NCBI RefSeq assembly: GCF_004010195.1
Contig: NC_057718.1
Location: 57,998,182-58,062,181, forward strand
Length of the DNA: 64,000 nt
Direction of reading: 5' to 3'
DNA from: Chiloscyllium plagiosum
Lineage: Eukaryota
Shown here: piece by piece, positions 1,551-61,660 of the stretch
How positions within the stretch are numbered: position 1 is the stretch's first letter
Layout: each line of letters opens with the position of its first letter
The notes under the pieces: model-generated
What the model was told of the DNA's origin: nothing
The model's database searches: none
Seen by the model: only the letters and a program-made list of their open reading frames with translations
Position numbers and translations under genes: made by a program

Positions 1551-1589
1551 GATTGGAGAATGTATAGTTTTAGGATCCTATTTTCAAAG

Positions 1590-1672
1590 TTTAAAAATCA
1601 CACAACACCAGGATATAGTCCAAGTTTATTTGGAAGCACTAGCTTTTGGAGTGGTGCTCCTTCATCAGGTTC
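1590..1672 (-). mobile_element. Penelope-like pLTR fragment with decayed hammerhead motif
   Basis: Minus strand reads CTGATGAaGGAGcaccaCTCC-aAAAGCTAgtg (GAAA mutated to AAAA). Same family as 14498-14615 and 37187-37330. Confidence 0.7.
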
Positions 1673-7518: not shown

Positions 7519-8357
7519 CAGAAACTGAGGTCTGCAGATGATGGAGATCAGAGTAAAAGCACAGCAGGTCAGGCAGCATCCGAGGAGCAGGAGAATTGAC
7601 GTTTCGGGCATAAGACTTAACAAATCACACTCCCCTCTTGGCACCTTCCCCTGCCACTGCAGGAATTGCAAAACCTGTGCTCACACCTCCCCACCCCACA
7701 CACCTCCAAAGGAGCCTCCCACATCCATCAGCATTTCACTTGCACTTCCACACATGTTATTTAATTGTATCCGTTACTCCCAATGTGGTCTCCTCTACAT
7801 TGGGGAGGTTGGACGCTTTCTTGCAGAGCACTTTAGAGAACATCTCTGGGAACACCCGCACCAATCAAGCCCACTGGCCTGTGGCCGAGCACTTCAACTC
7901 CCCCTCCCACTCTGCTGAGGACATGCAGGTCCTGGGCCGCCTCCACCTCCACTCCCTCACCACCCGACGCCTGGAGGAAGAATGCCTTATCTTCTGCCTC
8001 TGAACCCTTCAACCCAGGGCATTAATGTGGACTTCACCAGTTTCCTCATTTCTGCACCACCTCCCGCCCCAATTCCAACCTTCCACCTCAGCACCATCCT
8101 CACAACCTGTCCCACCTGTCAATCTTCCTTCTCACCTATCTGCTCCACCCTCCTCTCTGACCTGCACCTTTACCCCCACCTCCATTCACCTATTGCACTC
8201 TTAGCTGCCTTCTTCCTAGCCCCACCACCATCTTATTTTTCTCTCCACCCCCAAGGCTCCCAGCCTCATTCCTGATAAAGGACTTATGCCCAAAACTCGA
8301 GTCTCCTGCTCCTCGGATGCTGCCTGACCTGTGCTTTTCTTGCAGCACACTCTCAAC
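7519..8357. mobile_element. Penelope-like element with GIY-YIG fragment and inverted pLTR arm, 15-bp TSD
   Basis: + strand encodes C..CKTC and CIRYSQCGLLYIGE..FREHL..PVAEHFNSPSH. 7519-7615 is an inverted copy of the 8280-8357 terminus. TSD tatagatcaaccgtg (7504-7518) / tataaatcaaccgtg (8358-8372). Confidence 0.88.
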
Positions 8358-9859
8358 TATAAATCAACCGTGGTCTAGCTCACAGATTATTGAACACCTT
8401 TTGCCTGAAAGAATCCTTTTGAAATGCATTAGAGTGAACCCACCTCTCACCACACACCACTGTCCCACACCTATCCAAATTATAATACTGTATCAATATT
8501 TATGACATTAAAATGCAGCAATTAAGAGTGTTTTAAGGAAATGTGTGTAGTGACAGATTCCAGTGAGGTATGTGTGGGTGTTTCTTACTGCAGATTTCAT
8601 TTTTTTTCTGGGGAGATGTTTACCACGCATGACTCCTGCCTTTCTACCATTTACGTCATGCTGATCTGACTATTACTTTCCCATTATTTCCCAGACCCAC
8701 TGGGATATTTCTGTACCTGCCCAGAATTTTGTTAATTCCAGTTTGAGACCTGAGGTTTGGGGAGCTAACTGCTCTGCTCCTGTTCCTATGTAGCATCTGC
8801 ATTGTAATAATAAAACTTCATGGAATTGGGCAAACATCTATTCAGTTTCAGGAGTTAGTTTTATGCTTATTTATATGAAATTATGTAATATTATAAAAAT
8901 ATCTGCATGTACAAAACAAATGGCAAATTTTCACATTAAGCTGGAGTGCCATTTATTTCTTCTTGGTGGTCTTGACGATAAACAACAATGAATTGAAATA
9001 GGCCCATACCACCACCAGCAGGAAAGTATTGGAACTGCAAGTATACCAATTAAAATAGTGGTCCATTGGTCAAGGTGAAGGGATGGCCATGTTCATTCAG
9101 ATATATTTGCAGGGTTCTGGTGGGGATGTAGGTGACTGCTTTTGGATGAATAATAACTATCACTTCTCATCAAATTGTATGAGCTTTATATACTACCGCT
9201 CACAAGATAGATTTACTATCCTCTCCTCTTTCAGGGTAGGTGTCTACAGGGTTTGCTTGTCTTAGTGTGGTAGAGGGAAATCACTTAGAGGACTAAGGAC
9301 AAAAAGCTTGTGTCTCAAACAAGATGTATTTTACTGCTCAATTGTTGCTATATTGAAGTTACAATGATGTGATGGTTATTGCTAAATTTAAAGAAGAGAT
9401 AGATGGATTTTAATTCATCATGGGTTGAAGGGTAATGGTTAGCAGGCAGGATAGTGGAGTTAAGGCTAAGATGAGTTCAGGTTTGATTATATTATAATGT
9501 TGGAGCAGGCTTGAGGGCCTGAATAATCTATTCCTGCTCCTTGCTGTTATATTACAGAGACAATGAGACCTGCTAGGTCTGCTTCCTTCAATATCTTACA
9601 TTTTTCTCCCACAAAACAATTGTCATTGTGGTTTAAGGCACACCACCCCCCCCCCCCCCCACAAGTGTTTTCCTTTCAGTATTAATATTGACATAACTGA
9701 GTGCATTTTAACATTTACCTCGATGCCATCTCTGTCTGAGTCTCTAGCTTCACAAATTCAGTGTTTGGAGGTTTCACTATCATCTGGAATGTGTTCTCTT
9801 TGGTTCACCTATGATCTGAGCATTATTGATTCTTTTTCTATTCTTGACAATGATAGCCA

Positions 9860-10880: not shown

Positions 10881-11576
10881 TATAGAGTCATAGAGTCGTA
10901 GAAACAGAACAGCACAGAAACAGACCCTTCAGTCCAACTTGTCCATGCCAACCAGATATCCGAAATTTATCTCTTCCCATTTCTCAGCATTTGGTATATA
11001 TCCCTCTAAGCCCTTCTATTCATGTACCCATCCAGATGCCTTTTAAATGTTTTAATTGTCTCTACCACCTCCTCTGGTAGACCACAGCAGTTCGGGCAGC
11101 ATCTGAGGAGCAGTAAAATCGATGTTTCGGGCAAAAACGTCGATTTTACTGCTCCTTGGATGTTGCCTGAACTGCTGTGCTTTTCCAGCACCACTCTAAT
11201 CTAGACTCTGGTTTCCAGCATCTGCAGTCATTGTTTTTACCCACGTCCTCTAGTAGCTCATTCCACACACGTACTACCCTCTGCATGAAAGTATTGTCCC
11301 TCAGATCCCTTAAATCTTTTCCCTCTCACCTAAAACCCATGCCCCCTCGTTTTGGACCTCTCCACCCTGCAGATAAGACCTTGGCTATTCACTCTATCCA
11401 TGCCCCTCATGATTTTATAAACCTCTGTTAGGTCACCCTTCAGCCTCTGACACTCTAGGAAAATAGCCCCAGACTATTCAGCCTCTCCCTATAGCTCAAA
11501 CTTAAACCCTTTCAACTTTCACAACATCTTTCTCGTAGCAGGGAGACCAAAATTGAATGTAGTATTCCAAAAGTGA
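10881..11576 (-). mobile_element. HER1-like CR1 3' end, interrupted by a Penelope-like insertion
   Basis: (ctctatga)n tail and FKRHLDGYMNR motif on the minus strand. Confidence 0.85.
11081..11240. mobile_element. Short inverted Penelope-like pLTR insertion, 16-bp TSD
   Basis: Two opposing arms meet near 11132. TSD ccacctcctctggtag (11065-11080) / ccacgtcctctagtag (11241-11256). Confidence 0.82.
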
Positions 11577-14497: not shown

Positions 14498-14615
14498 AAC
14501 CACCTGCTGAAGGAGCAGAGCTCTGAGAACTAGTGCTTCCTGTTGGCCTATAACCTGGTGTTGTGTGATTTTTATCTTTGTACACCCTAGTGCAACACTG
14601 GCATCTCCAAATTAT
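14498..14615 (+). mobile_element. Penelope-like pLTR 3' end with degenerate hammerhead motif
   Basis: cacCTGCTGAaggagcagagctctGAGAactagtg followed by the terminus shared with 1590 and 37240. Confidence 0.7.
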
Positions 14616-14689
14616 TTCACATTAAAAACACTGAGCATTTCTCAAGTTCCCACAATACAGTATTTGCTTTCTACCTAACTCTATCCATC

Positions 14690-31149: not shown

Positions 31150-31275
31150 TAAGTTTTTGAAGAAGGGTCACTGGATTTGAAACGTTAACTCTGTTTTCCT
31201 CTCCACAGAAGCTGCCAAACTTCCTTAGTTTCTCCAGAAATTTCACTTTTGGTTTCAGGTATAAAGCATCTGAAC
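31150..31275 (+). mobile_element. Penelope-like pLTR 3' fragment
   Basis: tTGAAGAagggtcactggatttGAAACGTTaactctg hammerhead-like motif followed by a pLTR-type terminus. Confidence 0.6.
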
Positions 31276-31559
31276 TTTTTTGTTTTGTTCAAGTTTGGTA
31301 TTCTGTCTGGCATGGAGTGTCTCGGTAACCTTCCCAAAGTGATGGATTTCAAACTGTACGATGCTGCTGACATCACCTGTTGTAGCCTGAAAACAGCGTA
31401 TCCATAAAGGTTAAAAGTCATGGTGTTCTTATCATTTAAAAGCAACACAGTCCATGTCCTGGGGGGACGCATGAGTTGATGCTGTAATAAATGACATAGC
31501 TTGCTCACAACTTCCTTCTTTAAGTGAAAGTGTCTCAGTCTTTGTTGTTTAGTGAAGTT

Positions 31560-32724: not shown

Positions 32725-32944
32725 ATGTCTAAAAACAAAAAAATGCCAGAAATCACAGTGAGCCAGGCAGCATCAGTGGAGAGAGAGCAAGGTAATGTTT
32801 GAGTGTCGACGACTCTTCATCAGAGCAACCATCTAGACTCGAAATATTAGCTTGCTTTCTTTCCATGGATGCTGTCTGATCCACTGTGATCTCCAGCACT
32901 TTTTGTTTTCAGTACAGATTCCAGCATCTGCAGTAATTTGCTCC
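32725..32944. mobile_element. Inverted Penelope-like pLTR insertion within an old CR1 3' end (about 32380-33030)
   Basis: Arms 32731-32826 and 32830-32944 are reverse complements. Possible TSD tcagctgaa / tcagttgaa. Confidence 0.75.
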
Positions 32945-33129
32945 TCAGTTGAACCTTCATTATACATCCAGAGAGTGGATCTGTTCTTCCTCATGGAGAC
33001 AAAAACTACATACAATACTCCAGGGGTGACATCAGTTATTCCTGGCTTCCCCCAGCAGACTTACTGGTTACATCTTCAAAAACTCTATTTGTCAAACCCA
33101 CTCTCCTCTCTATAAATCTGCACTGTGTC

Positions 33130-36589: not shown

Positions 36590-37550
36590 AAGGTGAAGTT
36601 CAATCTGGATAAATGTGACGTATTGCATTCGGTATGACAAACAATTAATGGTAGGGCCTTGGGTAGTGCTGTACAACAGATGGACCTAGGGATTCAGGTA
36701 CATCATTTTTTGAAGTTTGCATCACATATAGAAAGGGTGGTTAAAAAGTTGTTTAGCACGCTTGCTTTTATTGCTCTGTCTTTTGACTTCTAAGGAATTG
36801 CAAAGTCATGTTGAGGTTGTACACGAAATTGGTGAGGCCTCTTCTGGAATACTGTGTCCAGAGTTGGTCAGCCAGTTATGGGAAGGATATTATTAAGATG
36901 GAGAGGGTTCAGAACAGATTTACCAGGATGTTGCCTGGTATGGAAGTTTGAGTTATAAAGAAAGGCTTGATGGCTGGGATTTCTTTCACTGGAGAATAGG
37001 AAGTTGAGAGGAGATCTTATGGAAGTTTATAAAATAATGAGGGATATAGACAGAGTTAATAGTAGTTGTCTTTTCCCTAGGATAAGGGATTTCAAGGCTA
37101 GGGGGCACATTTAAAGGTGAGAAGAGAGACAATTTGGAAAAACATGATGGACAGACTTTTTACACAGAGGGTGGTTCATGTGTGGAATCACACAACTCCA
37201 GGTTATAGTCCAACAGGTTTATTTGAAAGTACAAGCTTGTACTTTCAAATAAACCTGTTGGACTATAAACTGGTGTCATGTGCTTTTTAACTTTGTCCAC
37301 CTCAGTCCAACACTGGCACCTTCACATCATTAAGGGTCCAATGAACTTCCTGAGGAAGTGGTAGATGTGGATACATTTACAACATTTAAAATACACTTGG
37401 ATAAATACATGAATAGGAAAGGTTTGGAGGGGTATGGGCTAGGATTAGGCAGGTGGGACTAGTTTTGGGATTGTGTTCGGCATGGACTGGTTAGACCAAT
37501 GAGTCTATTTCTGTGCTGTATGACTCAATGGCTCTATGGCTCAATGACAT
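36590..37550 (+). mobile_element. CR1 3' region interrupted by a Penelope-like palindrome
   Basis: LVRPLLEYCVQ; LRGDLMEVYKIMRDIDR; tail repeats. Confidence 0.85.
37187..37330. mobile_element. Fold-back Penelope-like pLTR insertion
   Basis: Perfect palindrome 37203-37268; arms match 1590-1645 and 14530-14615. Confidence 0.82.
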
Positions 37551-40269: not shown

Positions 40270-42350
40270 CTTAAAGATCCCTAAGGGAAAAGGGAATAAC
40301 ATTAGGAAAAATGGTGCAAATAAAAGAGTGTAAAAAAGAATTCTCACTTCTCACAATAAACATTTCTGCAATAGACATGAAGGTCCATATGGCGCAGTTG
40401 CAAGGAAGGGCAAAAAGGCCAGAAAATAAATTTAGACCAAGGTTACAGAATTGGGAAGGCCTCTGAATGTATTTAAACTGAAAATGAGTAAATTTAAAGA
40501 AATCTCATGGAAGAGTATAGTAGAAGAAAAGGAACAGGAAAATATAATGATTTTATAAGACCGCTCGGTCCAACTCGTCCATGCCAAGATTCTAAATTTC
40601 AATGAGAAAATTTATGAAATTTGCAGCTGGAGAAAGTCATGCAATATTTTGTGTAGAAGAAAGTGCTTGGTTTTTAGAGTGCTTTGGTTTTATTCAGAAA
40701 GAAGTAAGAAAACTCCATCTTTGCTGCAGAGGCAAGAAAGCCCCAGAAGTGAGGAGCTATCATTTTGATCACCGAAAAAAAGAGAAAAGTCTGAGGAAGG
40801 AGAGAAATTCCAAAACGTGTACAGCCAGAAAGTAATACAAAGAAGTAGATTTAAAAAGCTTGAAAGCTGGAAATTACTACAAAAAAGTCTGTCATCCAAT
40901 TTAAAGCTTTATTGAAGAGTTCAATACAGTACGACGAAAACAAAGATTTCAAATGACCGGCAAATAAAGGAATTACTGCAACATGGTTGTGGTGCAAAAT
41001 CTAACAAACTCAACATTCACTCAATGAAAAACATCACTGGTAAGTACAAGAATTCAAGCTCAAAAAATTTGAGATTTGAAGCTATTTTGAAATGTAACAC
41101 ATTTCAAGAAATTGCAGAATCATAGGTATGTACAGCATGGAAACAAACCGCTCGGTCCAACTCGTCCATGCCAAGATCCTAAATTAATCTACTCCCATTT
41201 GTCAGCATTTGGCCCATATCCCATTAAATCATTCCTATTCATATACCCATCCAGATGCCTTTTAAATGTTGTAATTGTACCAGCCTCCACCACCTTTTCC
41301 AGCTCGTTCCATACACGCACCACCCTCTACATGAAAACGTTGTCCCTTAGCTTCCTTTTAAATCTTTTCACTCTCACCTTAAACCTATACCCACTAGTTT
41401 TGGACTCCTCCACCCTGGGGAAAAGACCTTAGCTATTGACCCTATCTATGCCCCTCATGATTTTATAAATTTATATAAGGTCACTTCTCAGCCTCCAATG
41501 GTTCAGGGAAAATAACCTAATCTATTCAGCCTCTCCCTACAGCTCAAACCTTCCAACCCTGGCAAAATCCTTGTAAATCTTTTCTGAACACTTTCAAGTT
41601 TCATAACATCTTTCTTATAGCAGGAGACCAGAATTGCATGCACTATTCAAAAAGTAGCCTAACCGATGTTCTGTATTTAAAGTATTTTACAGTAATAAAA
41701 TTAATTAGCACATTGAGAATGATTAGAAAAAGGTTATAATTCTTCCAAGTAGAGTCAAGATCAGAGACAGACCATTTAGGTCACAAGACTAGACTTTATG
41801 GAGACAACAGTTCTTAAGATACAGCATTGCCTCAAAATCAAAAACTAAGTGCAGAAGTAATATTGAGGTACAAAGCTGCAGAAGAGGAGTAAGTTAGACA
41901 TGAAAATGACTCAATATACTAGAAAATCTCTTTTAATAGAGATAAACAAGTCAGTCACAGAAGAAATGAGTGATCCCAATGAATATCTTCTGTATACTTA
42001 TGTTGTGTCCATCATTCTCTCGAATTTTCTCATTGACTGTACTGGCCTAAAAGGCCCATATGCAGCAGTGACTTCCAGAAATGTAGATCAATGCTGCGAT
42101 CACCGTGCTGATACTGACTGCTGTACATCAGACCCTTGCATGCGCAAACACACAGCTTTGAGGGAACATTGTTTGTGTATCATCGACAACTACTCATTAG
42201 CATGGCTCAAGACAATGCAACAGCAAAGGAGGACTTCAGGAGAGAAGTATGTCAAACAACATTTCACATGAAATGCCACAAAGCACCAAGCGTGGTTGTC
42301 TGAGGAAAAAAGCTACACTGAGCAACATAGATACCAAGCCTTTCTGAGAA
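40270..42350 (+). mobile_element. Highly degenerate Gypsy gag-pol remnant, split by a CR1
   Basis: LEKVMQYFV (gag-like) and FEG..LCIIDNYS (integrase-like, compare YLLVVDYYS). Confidence 0.4.
41115..41675 (-). mobile_element. HER1-like CR1 3' end
   Basis: Same 3' consensus as the other copies. Confidence 0.85.
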
Positions 42351-46590: not shown

Positions 46591-48340
46591 AGAGTCAGTG
46601 AGACACAGAGATGTACAGCATGGGAACAGACCCATCGGACCACCTCATCCATGCTGACCAGATATCCTAACCTAGTCTAGTCCCATTTGCCAACACTTGG
46701 CCCATATCCCTCCAAACCCTTCTCATTCATATACCTATCCAGATGCCTTTTAAATGTTGTAATTGTACCAGCCTCCACCACTTCCTCTGCCAACTCATTC
46801 CATACACATACCACCCTCTGCATGAAATGATTGCCCCTTAGGTCCCTTTTAAACTTTTTCTAGTTCTGCCCTCTAGTTCTGGACTTCCCCGCTGCAGGGA
46901 AAAGACCTTGCTTATTTACCATATCCATGCCCCTGATGATTTTATAAACCTCTATAAGTCACTCTTGAGCCTCTGATGCTCCAGGGAATACAGCCCAACC
47001 TATTCAACCTCTCTCTATAGCTCAAATCCTCCAACCCTGGCAACATCCTTGTAAATCTTTTCTGAACCCTTTCAAGATTCACAACATCCATCCAATAAGT
47101 GAGAGACCAGAATTGCACACAATACTCAAAAAATAGTCTAACCAATATCCTGTACAGCTGCAACATAACCTCCCAAAACCTATACTTACTGCTCTGACCA
47201 ATAAAGGAACGCATACCAAACACCTTCTTCACTGTCCTATCTACTTGTGACTCCACTTTCAAGGAACTATGAACCTGCACTCCAAGGTCTCTTTGTTCAG
47301 CAACACTCATGAGGACCTTACCATTAAGTGTATAAGTCCTGCTCTGATTTGCTTTTCCAAAATGCAGCACCTCACATTCATCTAAATTAAACTTCAACTG
47401 CCACTCCTCAGCCCATTGTCCCATCTGATCAAGATCCCATTGTACTCTGAGGTAACTTTCTTTGTCCACTACACCTCCAATTTTGGTGTCATCTGCAAAC
47501 TTACTAACTGTACGTCCCATATTCATAACGAAATAATTTATATAAACGATGACAAGCAGTGGACCCAACACCAATCCTTGTGGCACACGACTGGTCAAAG
47601 GCCTCCAGTCTGAAAAACAAGATCCACCACCACCCTCTGTCTTCTACATTTCAGCCAGTTCTGTATCCAATGGCTAGTTCTTCCTGTGTTCAATGAGATC
47701 TAGCCTTGCTTACCAGTCTCCATGAGGAACCTTGTCAAATGCCTTACAGAAATCCTTATAGATCACGTCCACCTCCCTGCTCTAATCAATCCTCTTTGCT
47801 ACTTCTTCAAAAAACTCAATCAAGTTTGTGAGACATGATTTCCTATGCACAAAGCCATGGTGACTATCCCTGGTTGGATAGTTCTCCCTGTGTTCAATGA
47901 GATCTTGCCTTGCTCACCAGTCTCCATGAGGAACCTTTTCAAATGCCTTACTGTGGTCCATATAGATCTTGTCCACCTCTCTGCTCTCAACAGTCCTCTT
48001 TGTACTTCTTCAAAAAACTCAATCAAATTTGTGAGACATGATTTCTCACACACAAAGCCATGTGAGCCATTAGGGACTATCCCTAATCAGTCCTTGCCTT
48101 TCGAAATACATGTACATCCTGTCCCCCAGATTTCCCTCCAACAACTTGCCCACCACTGACATAGTTCCTTGGCTTGTCCTTACCACCTTTCTTAAATACT
48201 GGCACCACATCAGCCATCATTCAGTCTTCTGGCACCTCACCAGTGACTATTGATGATACAAATATTCAACGTTTGTGAGAAGATTTGTAGCTCGGGTGCT
48301 CGTTGTTGTGGTTCTGTTCGCCGAGCTGGGAATTTATGTT

Positions 48341-48380
48341 GCAGACGTTTCGTCCCCTGTCTAGGTGACATCTTCAGCCC
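48341..48380 (-). ncRNA. Minimal hammerhead ribozyme motif (Penelope pLTR type)
   Basis: CUGAAGA-uguc accuagacagg ggac-GAAACGUC-ugc. Palindromic ACGU stem III as in PLE-associated minimal hammerheads; stem I imperfect in this copy. Confidence 0.6.
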
Positions 48381-48923
48381 TTGGGAGCCTCCTGTGAAGC
48401 GCTTCTGTGATGTTTCCTCCGGCATTTATAGTGGTTTGAATCTGCCGCTTCCGGTTGTCAGTTCCAGCTGTCCGTTGCAGTGGTCGGTACATTGGGTCCA
48501 GGTCGATGTGCTTATTGATTGAATCTGTGGATGAGTGCCATGTCTCTAGGAATTCCCTGGCTATTCTCTGTTTGGCTTGTCCTATAATGGTAGTGTTGTC
48601 CCAGTCGAATTCATGTTGCTTGTCATCTGCATGTGTGGCTACTAAGGATAGCTGGTCGTGTCGTTTCGTGGCTAGTTGGTGTTCATGGATGCGGATCATT
48701 AGCTGTCTTCATGTTTGTCCTATGTAGTATTTTGTGCAGTCCTTGCATGGGATTTTGTACGCTACATTGGTTTTGCTCATGCTGGGTATGGGGTCCTTCG
48801 TTCTGGTGAATTGTTGTCTGAGAGTGGCTGTTGGTTTGTGTGCTGTCAACCGGAAGTGGCAGAGACAAACCACTATAAATGCCGGAGGAAACATCACAGA
48901 AGCGCTTCACAGGAGGCTCCCAA

Positions 48924-48963
48924 GCACTGAGGATGTCACTTCGACAGGGGACGAAATATCTGC
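48924..48963 (+). ncRNA. Minimal hammerhead ribozyme motif, inverted-arm copy
   Basis: gca-CUGAGGA-uguc..ggac-GAAAUAUC-ugc. Stem I gca/ugc pairs; stem III AUAU is still palindromic. Confidence 0.55.
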
Positions 48964-49651
48964 AACACAAATTCCCAGCTCGGCGAACAGAACCACAACA
49001 ATGATACAAATATCTCAGCAAGAGGCCCAGCAATCACTTCCCTTATTTCCCACAGAGTTCTTAGGTACAGCTGATAAGGTCCTGGGGATTTACCCACATT
49101 TATGTGTTTTAAGACATCCAGCACATCCTCCTCTTTAATATGGACATTTTTCAAGATGTCACCATCTATTTCCCAACATTCTATATCTTCCTTTTCTGTC
49201 TCCACAGTAAATACTGATACAAGATACTCATTTAGTATCTCCCCCATCTCCTGTGGCTCCACACATAGGATGCCCTGCTGATCTTTAAGGTGCCCTATTC
49301 TCTCCTTAGTTATCCTTCTGTCCTTAATATATTTATAAAATCCCTTTGGATTCTCCTTAACCCAATTTGCCAAAGCTATCTCGTGACCCCTTTTTGTCCT
49401 CCTGATATCCCTCTTCAGTATACTCCTACTGCCTTTATACTCTTCTAAGGATTGACTTGATCTCTGCTGTCTATAGAATTGTATGTAGAACAGACACAAA
49501 ATACACAGATAATGAAAACATGGAAGGTAACAATCAACATTTGAACTACATGCAAGAGGCCAACACATATATAAGTCAACAATAACCAAGTTTGAAGTCT
49601 ACACCTGCAAAGGGTTATACCATCACAAGGGCCAGCAACTTATATGTCATG

Positions 49652-50225
49652 AGCTGAAAAATGTGTTGCTGGAAAAGCGCAGCAGGTCAGGCAGCATCCA
49701 AGGAGCAGGAGAATCGACGTTTCAGGTATAAGCCCTTCTTCAGGAATGAGGAAGGTGTGCCAAGCAGGCTAAGCTAAAAGGAAGGGAGGAGGGACTTGGG
49801 GGAGGGGCGTTGGGAATGCGATAGGTGGAAGGAGGTTAAGGTGAGGGTGATAGGCCAGAGAGGGGGTAGGGGCGGAGAGGTTGGGAAGGAGATTCTCTCC
49901 TCTACATTGGGGAGACAAGTACTTGTGGAGCATTTCAGAGAACACCTCTGGGACACCCGCACCAACCAACCCAACCGCCCCGTGGCTGAACATTTTAACT
50001 CCCCCTCCCACTCTGCCAAGGACATGCAGATCCTTGGCCTCCTTCATCGCCAGACCATGGCAACATGATGCCTGGACGAAGAGCACCTCATCTTCTGCCC
50101 AGGAACCCTCCAACCACGAGGGATGAATGCAGATTTCTCCTTGGATGCTGCCTGACCTGCTGCGCTTTTCCAGCAACACATTTTTCAGCTCTGATCTCCA
50201 ACATCTGCAGTCCTCACTTTCTCCT
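49652..50225. mobile_element. Penelope-like element with inverted arms and GIY-YIG fragment, 15-bp TSD
   Basis: LYIG..EHFREHLWDTRTNQPNRPVAEHFNSPSH. Hammerhead-like CUGAAGA..GAAACGUC at 49716-49743 (-). TSD aacttatatgtcatg (49637-49651) / aacttatatatcatg (50226-50240). Confidence 0.88.
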
Positions 50226-51009
50226 AACTTATATATCATGCAGACTTTCAGAGTCTCAAGACCTTAAATTTTACAACTCTTGTTTCTATAAACATGATTT
50301 TGCAATGAACTAAAATATACCTATTTTCACTTTTAATGCATATAGTTTTAGTTTTGGGTTTTAGAGTTACAGCATGAAATGAAAAGAAAAATTCTGCAAG
50401 TATTTTCAATCACAGTATTATTAAGATGTTTGATTGGTTTCCTTAGCAAACAAAATCAATTTAATGCAAAAGTCAATATTTCCATTATATTTCATGATAT
50501 TAATAATTCATGCTGCACAGCTTGTTGTTCCTGTCAGGAACATGATGGTCTCATTCAGCAGTTTCCTTGGTACAATACACATCTTGCGCTGCTGGTAATG
50601 CCCTTCAATCCACAACTTTACTTTAAAAGGGTTTACGATAAAATCTCTTGGAACATTTTTGAGACAGTTCCATCCACGTAAAGAAATCCATGTAAGGAAT
50701 TCGGTGCACAGCCATCTCATTCAAATAGAAGAACCTTCATAGTTAGTCTCCTCTCTGCTACTGCCTGTCCTCCTTGTAACCACAATGATTAAAGGGAGTA
50801 CAGTACATATTTTCTAGTTCGCTAAGTGTGGAAGACACATCCTAAATGTCAATGCACAAGAACACTTTATTACATTGTCATATTTTTGTTTTTGTTATCA
50901 CTTCCTCTTCAAGAAATGTTAAGCTTTCCTATTATATTAACCAGCAGAGTTCTCAGAAAATGGCAAACTCACTGATAGTTTAGTTGGTGAATGCATCAGT
51001 TGAAATAAA

Positions 51010-59410: not shown

Positions 59411-60599
59411 TATATTTGGATTCATCTTGACAAATACCGTCCCCATTGTCAATTAAAAATTTAATTAGTGCCCCAGTCTAGTCTCTAACTATTTTTCCAT
59501 TATCTTATTCACAATCACTTTTTTGTTCTTTACTGTATTATTGGAGATTGGTTAAATCTGTCAGGTCTGCGAACAGTGAGGTGAAAGTAGTTTTATCTTT
59601 ATCCTATGCCGTCAAGCGCTTGCTAAAGCATCATTAAAGTCTCTTACCAATCAAAGATTCATAATGGGCCATTGTGGTGAACTTTGATATGTTTTATGCA
59701 TAAAACATTTATCATTAATCTCTTCCGTAAATTTAACGTACATGCTGTCCTTTTTCCTTCATGCTTTTAGAAGAATTTTTAACCAGTGAGATGGATGAGC
59801 AAACTGCCAATATTGTTTGAAGACAATTAGCCATTTGTTTCTTTATAATCTTACAAAGTGAAACCCATTCACATTTATTTAATATTTTGATTAGAAAAGT
59901 AGATTACTTTAAGGGGACAAAACCATATCCAGATTGAGTAAACTGCAAATCCACTGACTTCCCTAAAACACTTATCTTGTTCTATTCCATGTCCAGTTTC
60001 ATTGGAGCCTTTTTCCAATGATGGCTTGCTGAAAAGTAAGGGTAATTCACATTCACTACACGTGACATCTGTGCTGATACAATGGTTGACTCCAGTTATT
60101 TTACATGGAATAACCAGTGTTTTTACAGATGTTATGTGTTGTCACTGTAAAATCCAAAGCAAAAGGAACTCTCAAAATCATTAACGTTATTGTTTTTCTT
60201 TTTATTTATAAAATCTAGGTATTATTTCAACCAATGCACTTCACATTTTGTGTGCCTACAGTCCAACACAATATAATTGAGTGAAACTGTGACTCGAACA
60301 TACATTGCTGGGCAGAGGTTTAATGTAAGTAGTACAATTTTTTTTGCCTGATCAATAAACTTCCCATGCTGTGCATCATTTTGAAAACCTGTTTTTTTTT
60401 GTTTAGGAGGACTCATTACATAACGATACTTTGGATCCAATCTTCTATTGTAGTTCCCCAATTCCTAACATATGCTGCGTGTACCAAAGGCATCTCTATC
60501 CTCACTCTTTTTTGTTATGATTGCTCTTTCATATTTCTTTTTGTGCCCCATATCTTAACAATCTTTGAATGCCACTAACATTGAATCCTCCATAAGGCT

Positions 60600-61660
60600 G
60601 TAACTCACAAGAGCAGAAGTAGACCATTTGACTCGCTGAGATTGGTTCACCATTCGATGAGATCATGGCTGATCTGATGACCCGCATTCCTGCTTTTTCC
60701 CTATAATCCTTGTTTCTCTTCCTGATTAAAAATCTGTCGATTTTATACTAGGACATACTTAATGATCCAATCTTAAAAGCCCTCTACATTTAAGAATTCC
60801 ACAAATGCACTAACCCCTTAAAGACCATAAGACCATAAGACATAGGAGCGGATGTAAGGCCATTTGGCCCATCGAGTCCACTCCGCCATTCAATCATGGC
60901 TGATGGGCATTTCAACTCCACTTACCCGCATTCTCCCCATAGCCCTTAATTCCTTGTGACATCAAGAATTTATCAATTTCTGCCTTGAAGACATTTAGCG
61001 TCCCAGCCTCCACTGCACTCTGCGGCAATGAATTCCACAGGCCCACCACTCTCTGGCTGAAGAAATGTCTCCGCATTTCTGTTCTGAATTTACCCCCTCT
61101 AATTCCACAGGTCCTAGTCTCCTCGCCTAANNNNNNNNNNNNNNNNNNNNNNNNNNNNNNNNNNNNNNNNNNNNNNNNNNNNNNNNNNNNNNNNNNNNNN
61201 ACAGTACTCCAAATGGGGCCTAAGAAGAGATTCCTCCTCACTTCTGTCTCATATACATGACCACTTATTCTGAGATTATGCCCCCTGGTCTTAGACTCTC
61301 CTACAGTGGGAAACAACCTCTCTGCATCTGTGCTGTCAAATCCAATAAGAATCTTGTCAATACGATCCCTGTTATTGTTTTAAACTCGAATGAATATAGG
61401 CCCAACCTCCTCAACCTATCTTCTTTATAAAATCTCTCCATACATAGAATCAACTGAACTGTCTCTTCACTGCTTCTGATGCCAGTATGTCTCTCCTTAG
61501 ATTAGGGAACCAGAACTGTTTATTGTATATTAGGTGTGGATTAGCTACTGCTAGGTATAGTTTAGCAATATTTTGCTTTTTTTATATACACCTCTTCCTA
61601 TAAATATAAACTGATATTCTGTTTGCCTTTCCTATTACCTGCTGAACTTAGATGTTAGTT
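60600..61660 (-). mobile_element. Old CR1 3' end with a younger CR1 3' end (60822 to the gap) nested in it
   Basis: FFSQRVVGLWNSLPQ; (ttatggtc)n tail at 60822-60845. Confidence 0.8.
61131..61200. other. Assembly gap (70 N)
   Basis: Run of N. Confidence 1.

Follow-up and report, generated by a model that had tools for sequence, protein, structure and literature searches.

A dead head-to-head stub of a Penelope-like 3' end inside a shark LINE, with its axis on stem III of the family's predicted hammerhead

Does a ribozyme motif decide where the two arms of an inverted Penelope-like element (PLE) insertion are joined? The question is raised by a short locus in a 64-kb window of shark DNA (the window being the whole stretch that was analysed, 64,000 nucleotides), where an earlier note had described a long palindrome centred on the hammerhead stem III of a Penelope-like terminus and had proposed that a fold-back was primed at the ribozyme's own palindrome. 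When every centre of the window was scanned, the palindrome itself was borne out: positions 37203-37268 form a perfect, gapless 66-bp palindrome with 33-bp arms and no loop, and its symmetry axis lies between 37235 and 37236, inside AAGCTT (AAG/CTT). The second-longest perfect palindrome in the window has arms of only 10 bp, and the chance expectation for one with 33-bp arms is about 2e-15 per window. By self-alignment the inverted repeat reaches 50 bp per arm (37186-37285), with 45 of the 50 pairs matching. The palindrome is the core of a longer, dead insertion of 144 bp (37186-37329), a head-to-head stub of a shark Penelope-like 3' end that lies within a LINE and is made up of the following parts:

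37186..37235, minus strand: left arm, an inverted copy of the element 3' end, 50 nt by self-alignment, in which the tail is not reached
37203..37268, no strand: perfect 66-bp palindromic core, from the palindrome scan
37233..37238, no strand: AAGCTT hexamer common to both arms, in which the GAAA core runs out into the AGCU palindrome of stem III and the last residue precedes the predicted cleavage site
37236..37329, plus strand: right arm, the sense 3' end of a Penelope-like terminal repeat from stem III to its long end, 82% alike to 14539-14616
37286..37329, plus strand: 44 nt unique to the right arm by arm comparison, including the likely 'tail'

AAGCTT is the sole perfect 6-base palindrome in either arm. 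The outer ends are unequal: the left arm stops about 8 nt before the end point of a non-inverted copy at 1590, and about 35 of the extra 44 nt of the right arm lie beyond that point. Read depth drops about twentyfold from bin 37320-37329 to bin 37330-37339, and we therefore placed the element end at 37329; the extent of 37187..37330 proposed earlier holds for the stub and fails at its end, where 10 unmatched bases follow the element. In the available text on EN+ PLEs the insertion unit has an inverted 5'-truncated pLTR, a junction palindrome and a 30-40-bp tail (PMC3846280; PMC8557442). At 37186-37329 an inverted, 5'-truncated copy lies adjacent head-to-head and a one-arm tail of this length is present; the identification as an inverted Penelope-like terminus stands.

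All five arm mismatches (positions 34, 39, 42, 43 and 48 from the axis) fall in the outer 17 pairs and none in the inner 33 (p = 0.003, falling to p = 0.026 once two likely CpG columns are removed). Two of them make a TG/CA pair, as CpG decay on opposite strands predicts, and together these differences indicate that both arms have aged separately. Three raw-read runs that share a species label, from three samples of one study, were read to about 4% each and aligned to 37130-37400 at 80% likeness, together with contigs of another organism; each run contributed about 55,000 aligned reads. No displayed read or contig bridges flank and axis, nor does an other-organism contig bridge a flank among the 8 matches listed of more than 33,000, and polishing can homogenise short arms, which would fit a palindrome, or a perfection of it, that came from assembly or library preparation and was not in the animal. 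Such an artefact is highly improbable, however, given the separately aged arms and the inverted joints of the stub's family found in all three raw-read runs at similar counts, and the share of each run that was read gives well under one-fold expected coverage, too little for this locus.

The insertion sits in a repeat, with these features at the target site:

36800..37543, plus strand: LINE-like 3' fragment split by the insert (repeat families D9, D15, D1 and D16), with paralogues unbroken across the site
37176..37188, plus strand: target sequence left of the insert, in which AAT (37186-37188) fits the LINE and the left-arm end alike
37330..37342, plus strand: 10 unmatched bases (37330-37339) plus AAT, possibly filler DNA or a decayed 13-bp target-site duplication (TSD) of 37176-37188

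That the stub lies within a LINE-like repeat was confirmed, since neither in the window nor in the reads are the paralogues of this repeat interrupted at the site; the joint from 37185 to 37340, i.e., the LINE without the insert, was seen in 333, 325 and 289 reads of the three runs and has 3 bases common to both sides. The host is a putative CR1, its repeat nature being what the analysis itself shows. The stretch 37330..37342 agrees with 37176-37188 in 8 of 13 bases, for which p is about 0.09 if by chance and about 0.04 if by decay, and no other source of bases 37330-37339 was found in the window at up to 1 mismatch. Filler DNA and a decayed 13-bp TSD appear about equally weak as readings of 37330-37342 and neither is favoured. 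There is no clear TSD at the stub, with a 3-base overlap or the 8/13 repeat as against 13/13 and 14/15 in neighbouring insertions.

Two non-inverted copies of the stub's family, recognised by alignment to the arms, are present in the window:

1585..1670, minus strand: copy with a decayed hammerhead, short end
14498..14616, plus strand: copy with mutated core and stem III, long end

The arms match both termini, as had been claimed, at 81-94% depending on the stretch: 81-85% over 53-64 nt to 1585-1670, and 82% over 78 nt and 94% over 32 nt to 14502-14616. A further claim, that the homologous position in these two copies reads (G)AAAGCTH, did not hold, as the motif is intact in neither and was seen only in the read consensus. 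The copy at 1590 reads AAAAGCTA at this position, with the core intact at 1668-1662 and GAAA decayed, and the copy at 14498 has lost the AGCT palindrome. More non-inverted Penelope-like ends with decayed hammerheads were observed at 7532-7613, 8255-8359 and 31157-31280, with 5' ends within about 25 nt of the core.

The reads supply the hammerhead that the window copies have lost. Upstream of 37233 their consensus is hammerhead core and stem II, and the consensus of reads leaving the template at the axis has CUGAUGA, an extra A, GGAGC/GCUCC with a 3-base loop, and GAAA overlapping AGCU. A family consensus lacking CUGANGA/GAAA had been named as evidence against the earlier reading; in all four runs, the consensus of the loose ends at both 37233 and 37238 contains the core and GAAA. 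By this consensus, helix II has G10.1-C11.1 with an unpaired base before it and is 5 bp long (GGAGC/GCUCC, 3-nt loop), shorter than the 7-8 bp reported for Schistosoma hammerheads; helix III is palindromic and loop-less, AGCU followed by A (about 60% of reads) or U (as in the stub at 37186-37329); and helix I is CAC/GUG in the majority form. CUGAUGA, the extra base, G10.1-C11.1, GAAA and palindromic 15.2-16.2 are shared with the feature list for minimal type I hammerheads of metazoan PLEs in the consulted portion of Cervera and De la Pena 2014 (PMC4209133), which also has paired hammerhead motifs on opposite strands, 100-700 bp apart. On this sequence basis the family carries a minimal hammerhead, predicted to self-cleave as a dimer, and the axis of the stub is its stem III, as the earlier note had it.

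The stub itself has lost the catalytic core. CUGAUGA and helix II are absent from both strands at 37186-37329 and only stem III and the downstream strand are kept, so it cannot be a ribozyme. It belongs to a large family, likely of tens of thousands of copies, as calculated from the depth of the two arms together, near 42,000 in 1,934 million letters, and an assumed genome size of 3-5 Gb. Three minority letters that the arms share are found in roughly 20-40% of family reads, and no ORF tied to this family was found in the window. As a separate observation, about 120-150 reads per run on 37186-37225 contain joints that jump back by 37-40 bases and have 8 or 13 letters in between. They make up a recurring 48-50-nt tandem unit from the family's 3' end, which may represent partial tandems or a small satellite.

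If ribozyme cleavage had set the junction, the centre of the stub should coincide with the cut. By standard hammerhead numbering, the predicted cut falls after 37238, and the stub centre holds five bases upstream of it. A cleaved template would be without AAGCTT and would give a cDNA ending in the palindrome GTAC, 6 bases downstream. A junction at the cut site was ruled out since the centre keeps the upstream bases, and the retention of AAGCTT there indicates that the RNA template was uncleaved. This agrees with the in vitro work on Poseidon of Anolis carolinensis (Frangieh et al. 2024), in the available text of which ribozyme mutants of the anole PLE insert normally and uncleaved RNA is the main template (PMC11167929). 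Ribozyme cutting likely took no part in making the stub.

The hammerhead could have directed the turn without cutting, if RNA dimers paired through stem III stalled the reverse transcriptase (RT) at AGCU and so produced a junction hotspot across families. The axis does lie exactly on stem III, and copies centred on AGCT map on the template without a joint, so that the read table allows them up to 22% of reads at the site. The remainder, at least 78%, run through: the count at 37238 is 24,942 reads, and 19,457 of them (78%) break off from the template at 37233 and continue into the hammerhead, a figure which assumes that reads clipped five bases away are counted, as other rows of the table support. 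On the mirror side, 23,356 of 30,162 reads run into the hammerhead. Among the joints listed (15 of 283), at least 7 are at the axis, with at least 1,681 reads; of these axis joints, 3 with at least 1,200 reads have the whole hexamer on both arms, their turn probably lying upstream of stem III. The non-inverted copies, too, have their starts around the motif, so that short cDNAs end near the hammerhead anyway. Cleavage did not define the end.

Other inverted insertions in the window bear on the same point. Including the stub there are five Penelope-like ones, of four families; this count omits the 10-bp-arm palindrome at 59689 and the pair 33500-33705/34668-34873, which are not Penelope-like by comparison, the latter being a 206-bp inverted repeat, 89% alike, 962 bp apart and possibly a DNA transposon. 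The copy at 11083-11240 belongs to a second family with an ACGT stem III; one arm starts at GAAA and the other ends in loop II, and its junction (11127-11137) is of hairpin type, with a 3-nt overlap at 11135, a loop of about 7 nt and no obvious TSD. A third family is represented by an old stub at 32729-32945, where the arms are 72% alike, the tail is 33 nt, and one arm ends just upstream of the hammerhead core while the other starts in helix II. At 48270-49004 (within 48253-49013) a copy of the fourth family is joined about 84 nt upstream of the core as far as one arm is concerned, and within the ORF on the other; the overlap at 48843 is 7/8 nt and the 13-bp TSD is perfect. An RT/GIY-YIG ORF, of which the long arm keeps the broken end, is 65-95% identical to shark RT/GIY-YIG proteins, its Pfam matches being below cut-off. 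The final residues of the best RT-bearing protein match appear to be encoded by the hammerhead core. The fifth insertion, 49651-50227 (within 49637-50240), has its junction near the ORF end and a 14/15 TSD. This copy is young, with identical 55-nt arms, and an apparent short-homology deletion has brought a GIY-YIG-like ORF end up against the terminal repeat. Each of the five has one arm that reaches further at the outer end than the other, by 44 (stub), up to 61, 33, about 30 and 36 nt. The proteins matched by ORF remnants elsewhere in the window are those of Chiloscyllium, Hemiscyllium, Stegostoma and Rhincodon, so the genome is carpet-shark-like.

The junction thus lies on stem III in just one of the five inverted insertions, within or at the edge of the hammerhead in three, and far upstream in two. 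While the three of five favour a turn directed by the hammerhead, the single centred copy and the reads with whole hexamers on both arms argue against it, and we regard this explanation as distinctly unlikely. AGCT is not obligatory as the axis of inverted copies. The proposal of a fold-back primed at the ribozyme's own palindrome is upheld in part, in that the axis is exactly stem III and 6 bases are common to both arms; a role for the motif as a ribozyme is not, given the uncut centre, the four window insertions that turn elsewhere and the at least 1,200 reads that likely do.

We infer, at about even probability, that a single insertion event produced two short cDNAs, likely started from nicks on opposite sides of the target, and that they annealed at AAGCTT. 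Both cDNAs would have stopped near the hammerhead and their ends would have paired via the self-complementary hexamer as ordinary DNA microhomology, likely not as a ribozyme, with gaps filled by host repair; the family would be driven by an RT/GIY-YIG protein, as the neighbouring families are. The full AAGCTT in both arms points to microhomology, and short overlaps occur at other junctions too (3 nt at 11135, 7/8 nt at 48843). The anole PLE protein, in the available text, cuts and extends both target strands in vitro, and two RT start sites bound the tail (PMC11167929); the unequal outer ends of the stub fit two such start sites flanking the tail. Poseidon is of another species and family than the shark stub, and inverted junctions are absent from the text available for that study (PMC11167929). 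Counting against two annealed cDNAs are the junction at 11127-11137, which is like a true hairpin, the lack of a clear TSD at the stub, a left arm about 8 nt short of the 1590 end, and a family without a linked ORF. Something akin occurs in L1 twin or dual priming, where a pair of cDNAs begun at opposite nicks is joined internally, often through microhomology, as the accessible part of PMC2837659 describes; L1 arms copy different parts of the RNA and yield non-overlapping fragments, which also counts against the comparison, whereas both stub arms copy the same 3' segment and so form a palindrome.

Sequence alone cannot tell two annealed cDNAs from a snap-back followed by an endonuclease cut at the short end. 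In the latter, an antisense strand (cDNA or antisense RNA) ending at AAGCTT would have folded and copied itself, with an endonuclease or repair then fixing the short end and the hexamer being merely a convenient palindrome. Self-priming of this kind is how Arkhipova et al. 2013 read inverted pLTRs, tails and junction palindromes in Penelope elements, in the text available (PMC3846280). It predicts the same perfect centre, and the copy at 11083-11240 shows its hairpin-type geometry. By calculation, however, the hexamer gives -5.8 kcal/mol as a two-strand duplex and +3.2 kcal/mol as a loop-less hairpin turn (1 bp). Polymerases can extend from 1-2 bp and thus need little pairing, which makes this energy contrast weak. 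The predicted fold of the strand end pairs other bases (-0.5 kcal/mol) and would leave an asymmetric junction, and an extra step is needed for the recurring short end. We consider snap-back possible, though rather less probable than the annealing of two cDNAs.

The clean inner 33 pairs would also follow if, some time after insertion, a short-range template switch during replication, seeded at the hexamer, had made the left arm or had perfected it; such switching is known to perfect inverted repeats according to the part of PMC5453318 available. The left arm, however, ends exactly at the LINE junction with its 3-base overlap, the alleles common to both arms look like subfamily letters, given their frequency in family reads, and the case was chosen for being perfect. 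Creation of the arm de novo in this way is very unlikely; correction of the core alone is compatible with the annealing of two cDNAs, and the unmutated inner 33 bp may reflect either later arm-to-arm correction or the selection of an eye-catching case.

With EN+ PLE units the stub shares head-to-head inverted repeats, a perfect junction palindrome (18 and 38 bp in rotifers) and a one-arm extension. It differs in having no ORF and no complete pLTR, and in a junction on stem III. A TSD is optional in EN+ PLEs, at 8-10 bp in rotifers. In the available text, Craig et al. 2021 generalise the architecture and find it also in elements without hammerheads (PMC8557442), which argues that the ribozyme is not needed. 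No published report of PLE junctions on hammerhead stem III was found in a search that covered mainly the text of openly accessible papers. Non-LTR retrozymes, as described in the accessible text of bioRxiv 10.64898/2026.07.22.740005, are like the stub non-coding, PLE-derived and hammerhead-associated, but consist of tandem units that each carry a hammerhead. A retrozyme or self-propagating palindromic element was rejected for the stub, which is a single inverted unit without the core.

Wider searches were also made. An exact pattern scan of metagenome contigs gave no matches, and two pattern matches in viral contigs, with no further similarity and no hammerhead context, were taken as chance. 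The Rfam search at E up to 1 returned 7 matches, all below gathering score and none to a hammerhead family; three miRNA-precursor models match the hairpin shape and were rejected. None of 4 short ORF remnants had a Pfam match. The assembly has a gap of 70 N at 61131-61200.

The stub is a correct observation of a known kind of by-product, and as one dead copy among likely tens of thousands it matters little in itself. The role of the minimal hammerhead in PLEs and the formation of inverted arms are open questions in the available literature (PMC8557442; PMC11167929), and since sharks have many short inverted copies, a histogram of their junctions would bear on both. If stem III stood out as a peak, the ribozyme motif would be tied to insertion; if the histogram were flat and driven by microhomology, with the short end fixed, the joining of two cDNAs would be supported. 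A bolder idea, built on this single copy and in our view unlikely, is that PLE minimal hammerheads offer, in their loop-less stem III palindrome, a hotspot throughout the genome where two cDNAs anneal and so close an insertion, the motif being kept partly for joining at the DNA level. If true, it would give barely cleaving ribozymes a function and would explain the head-to-head architecture of Penelope elements.
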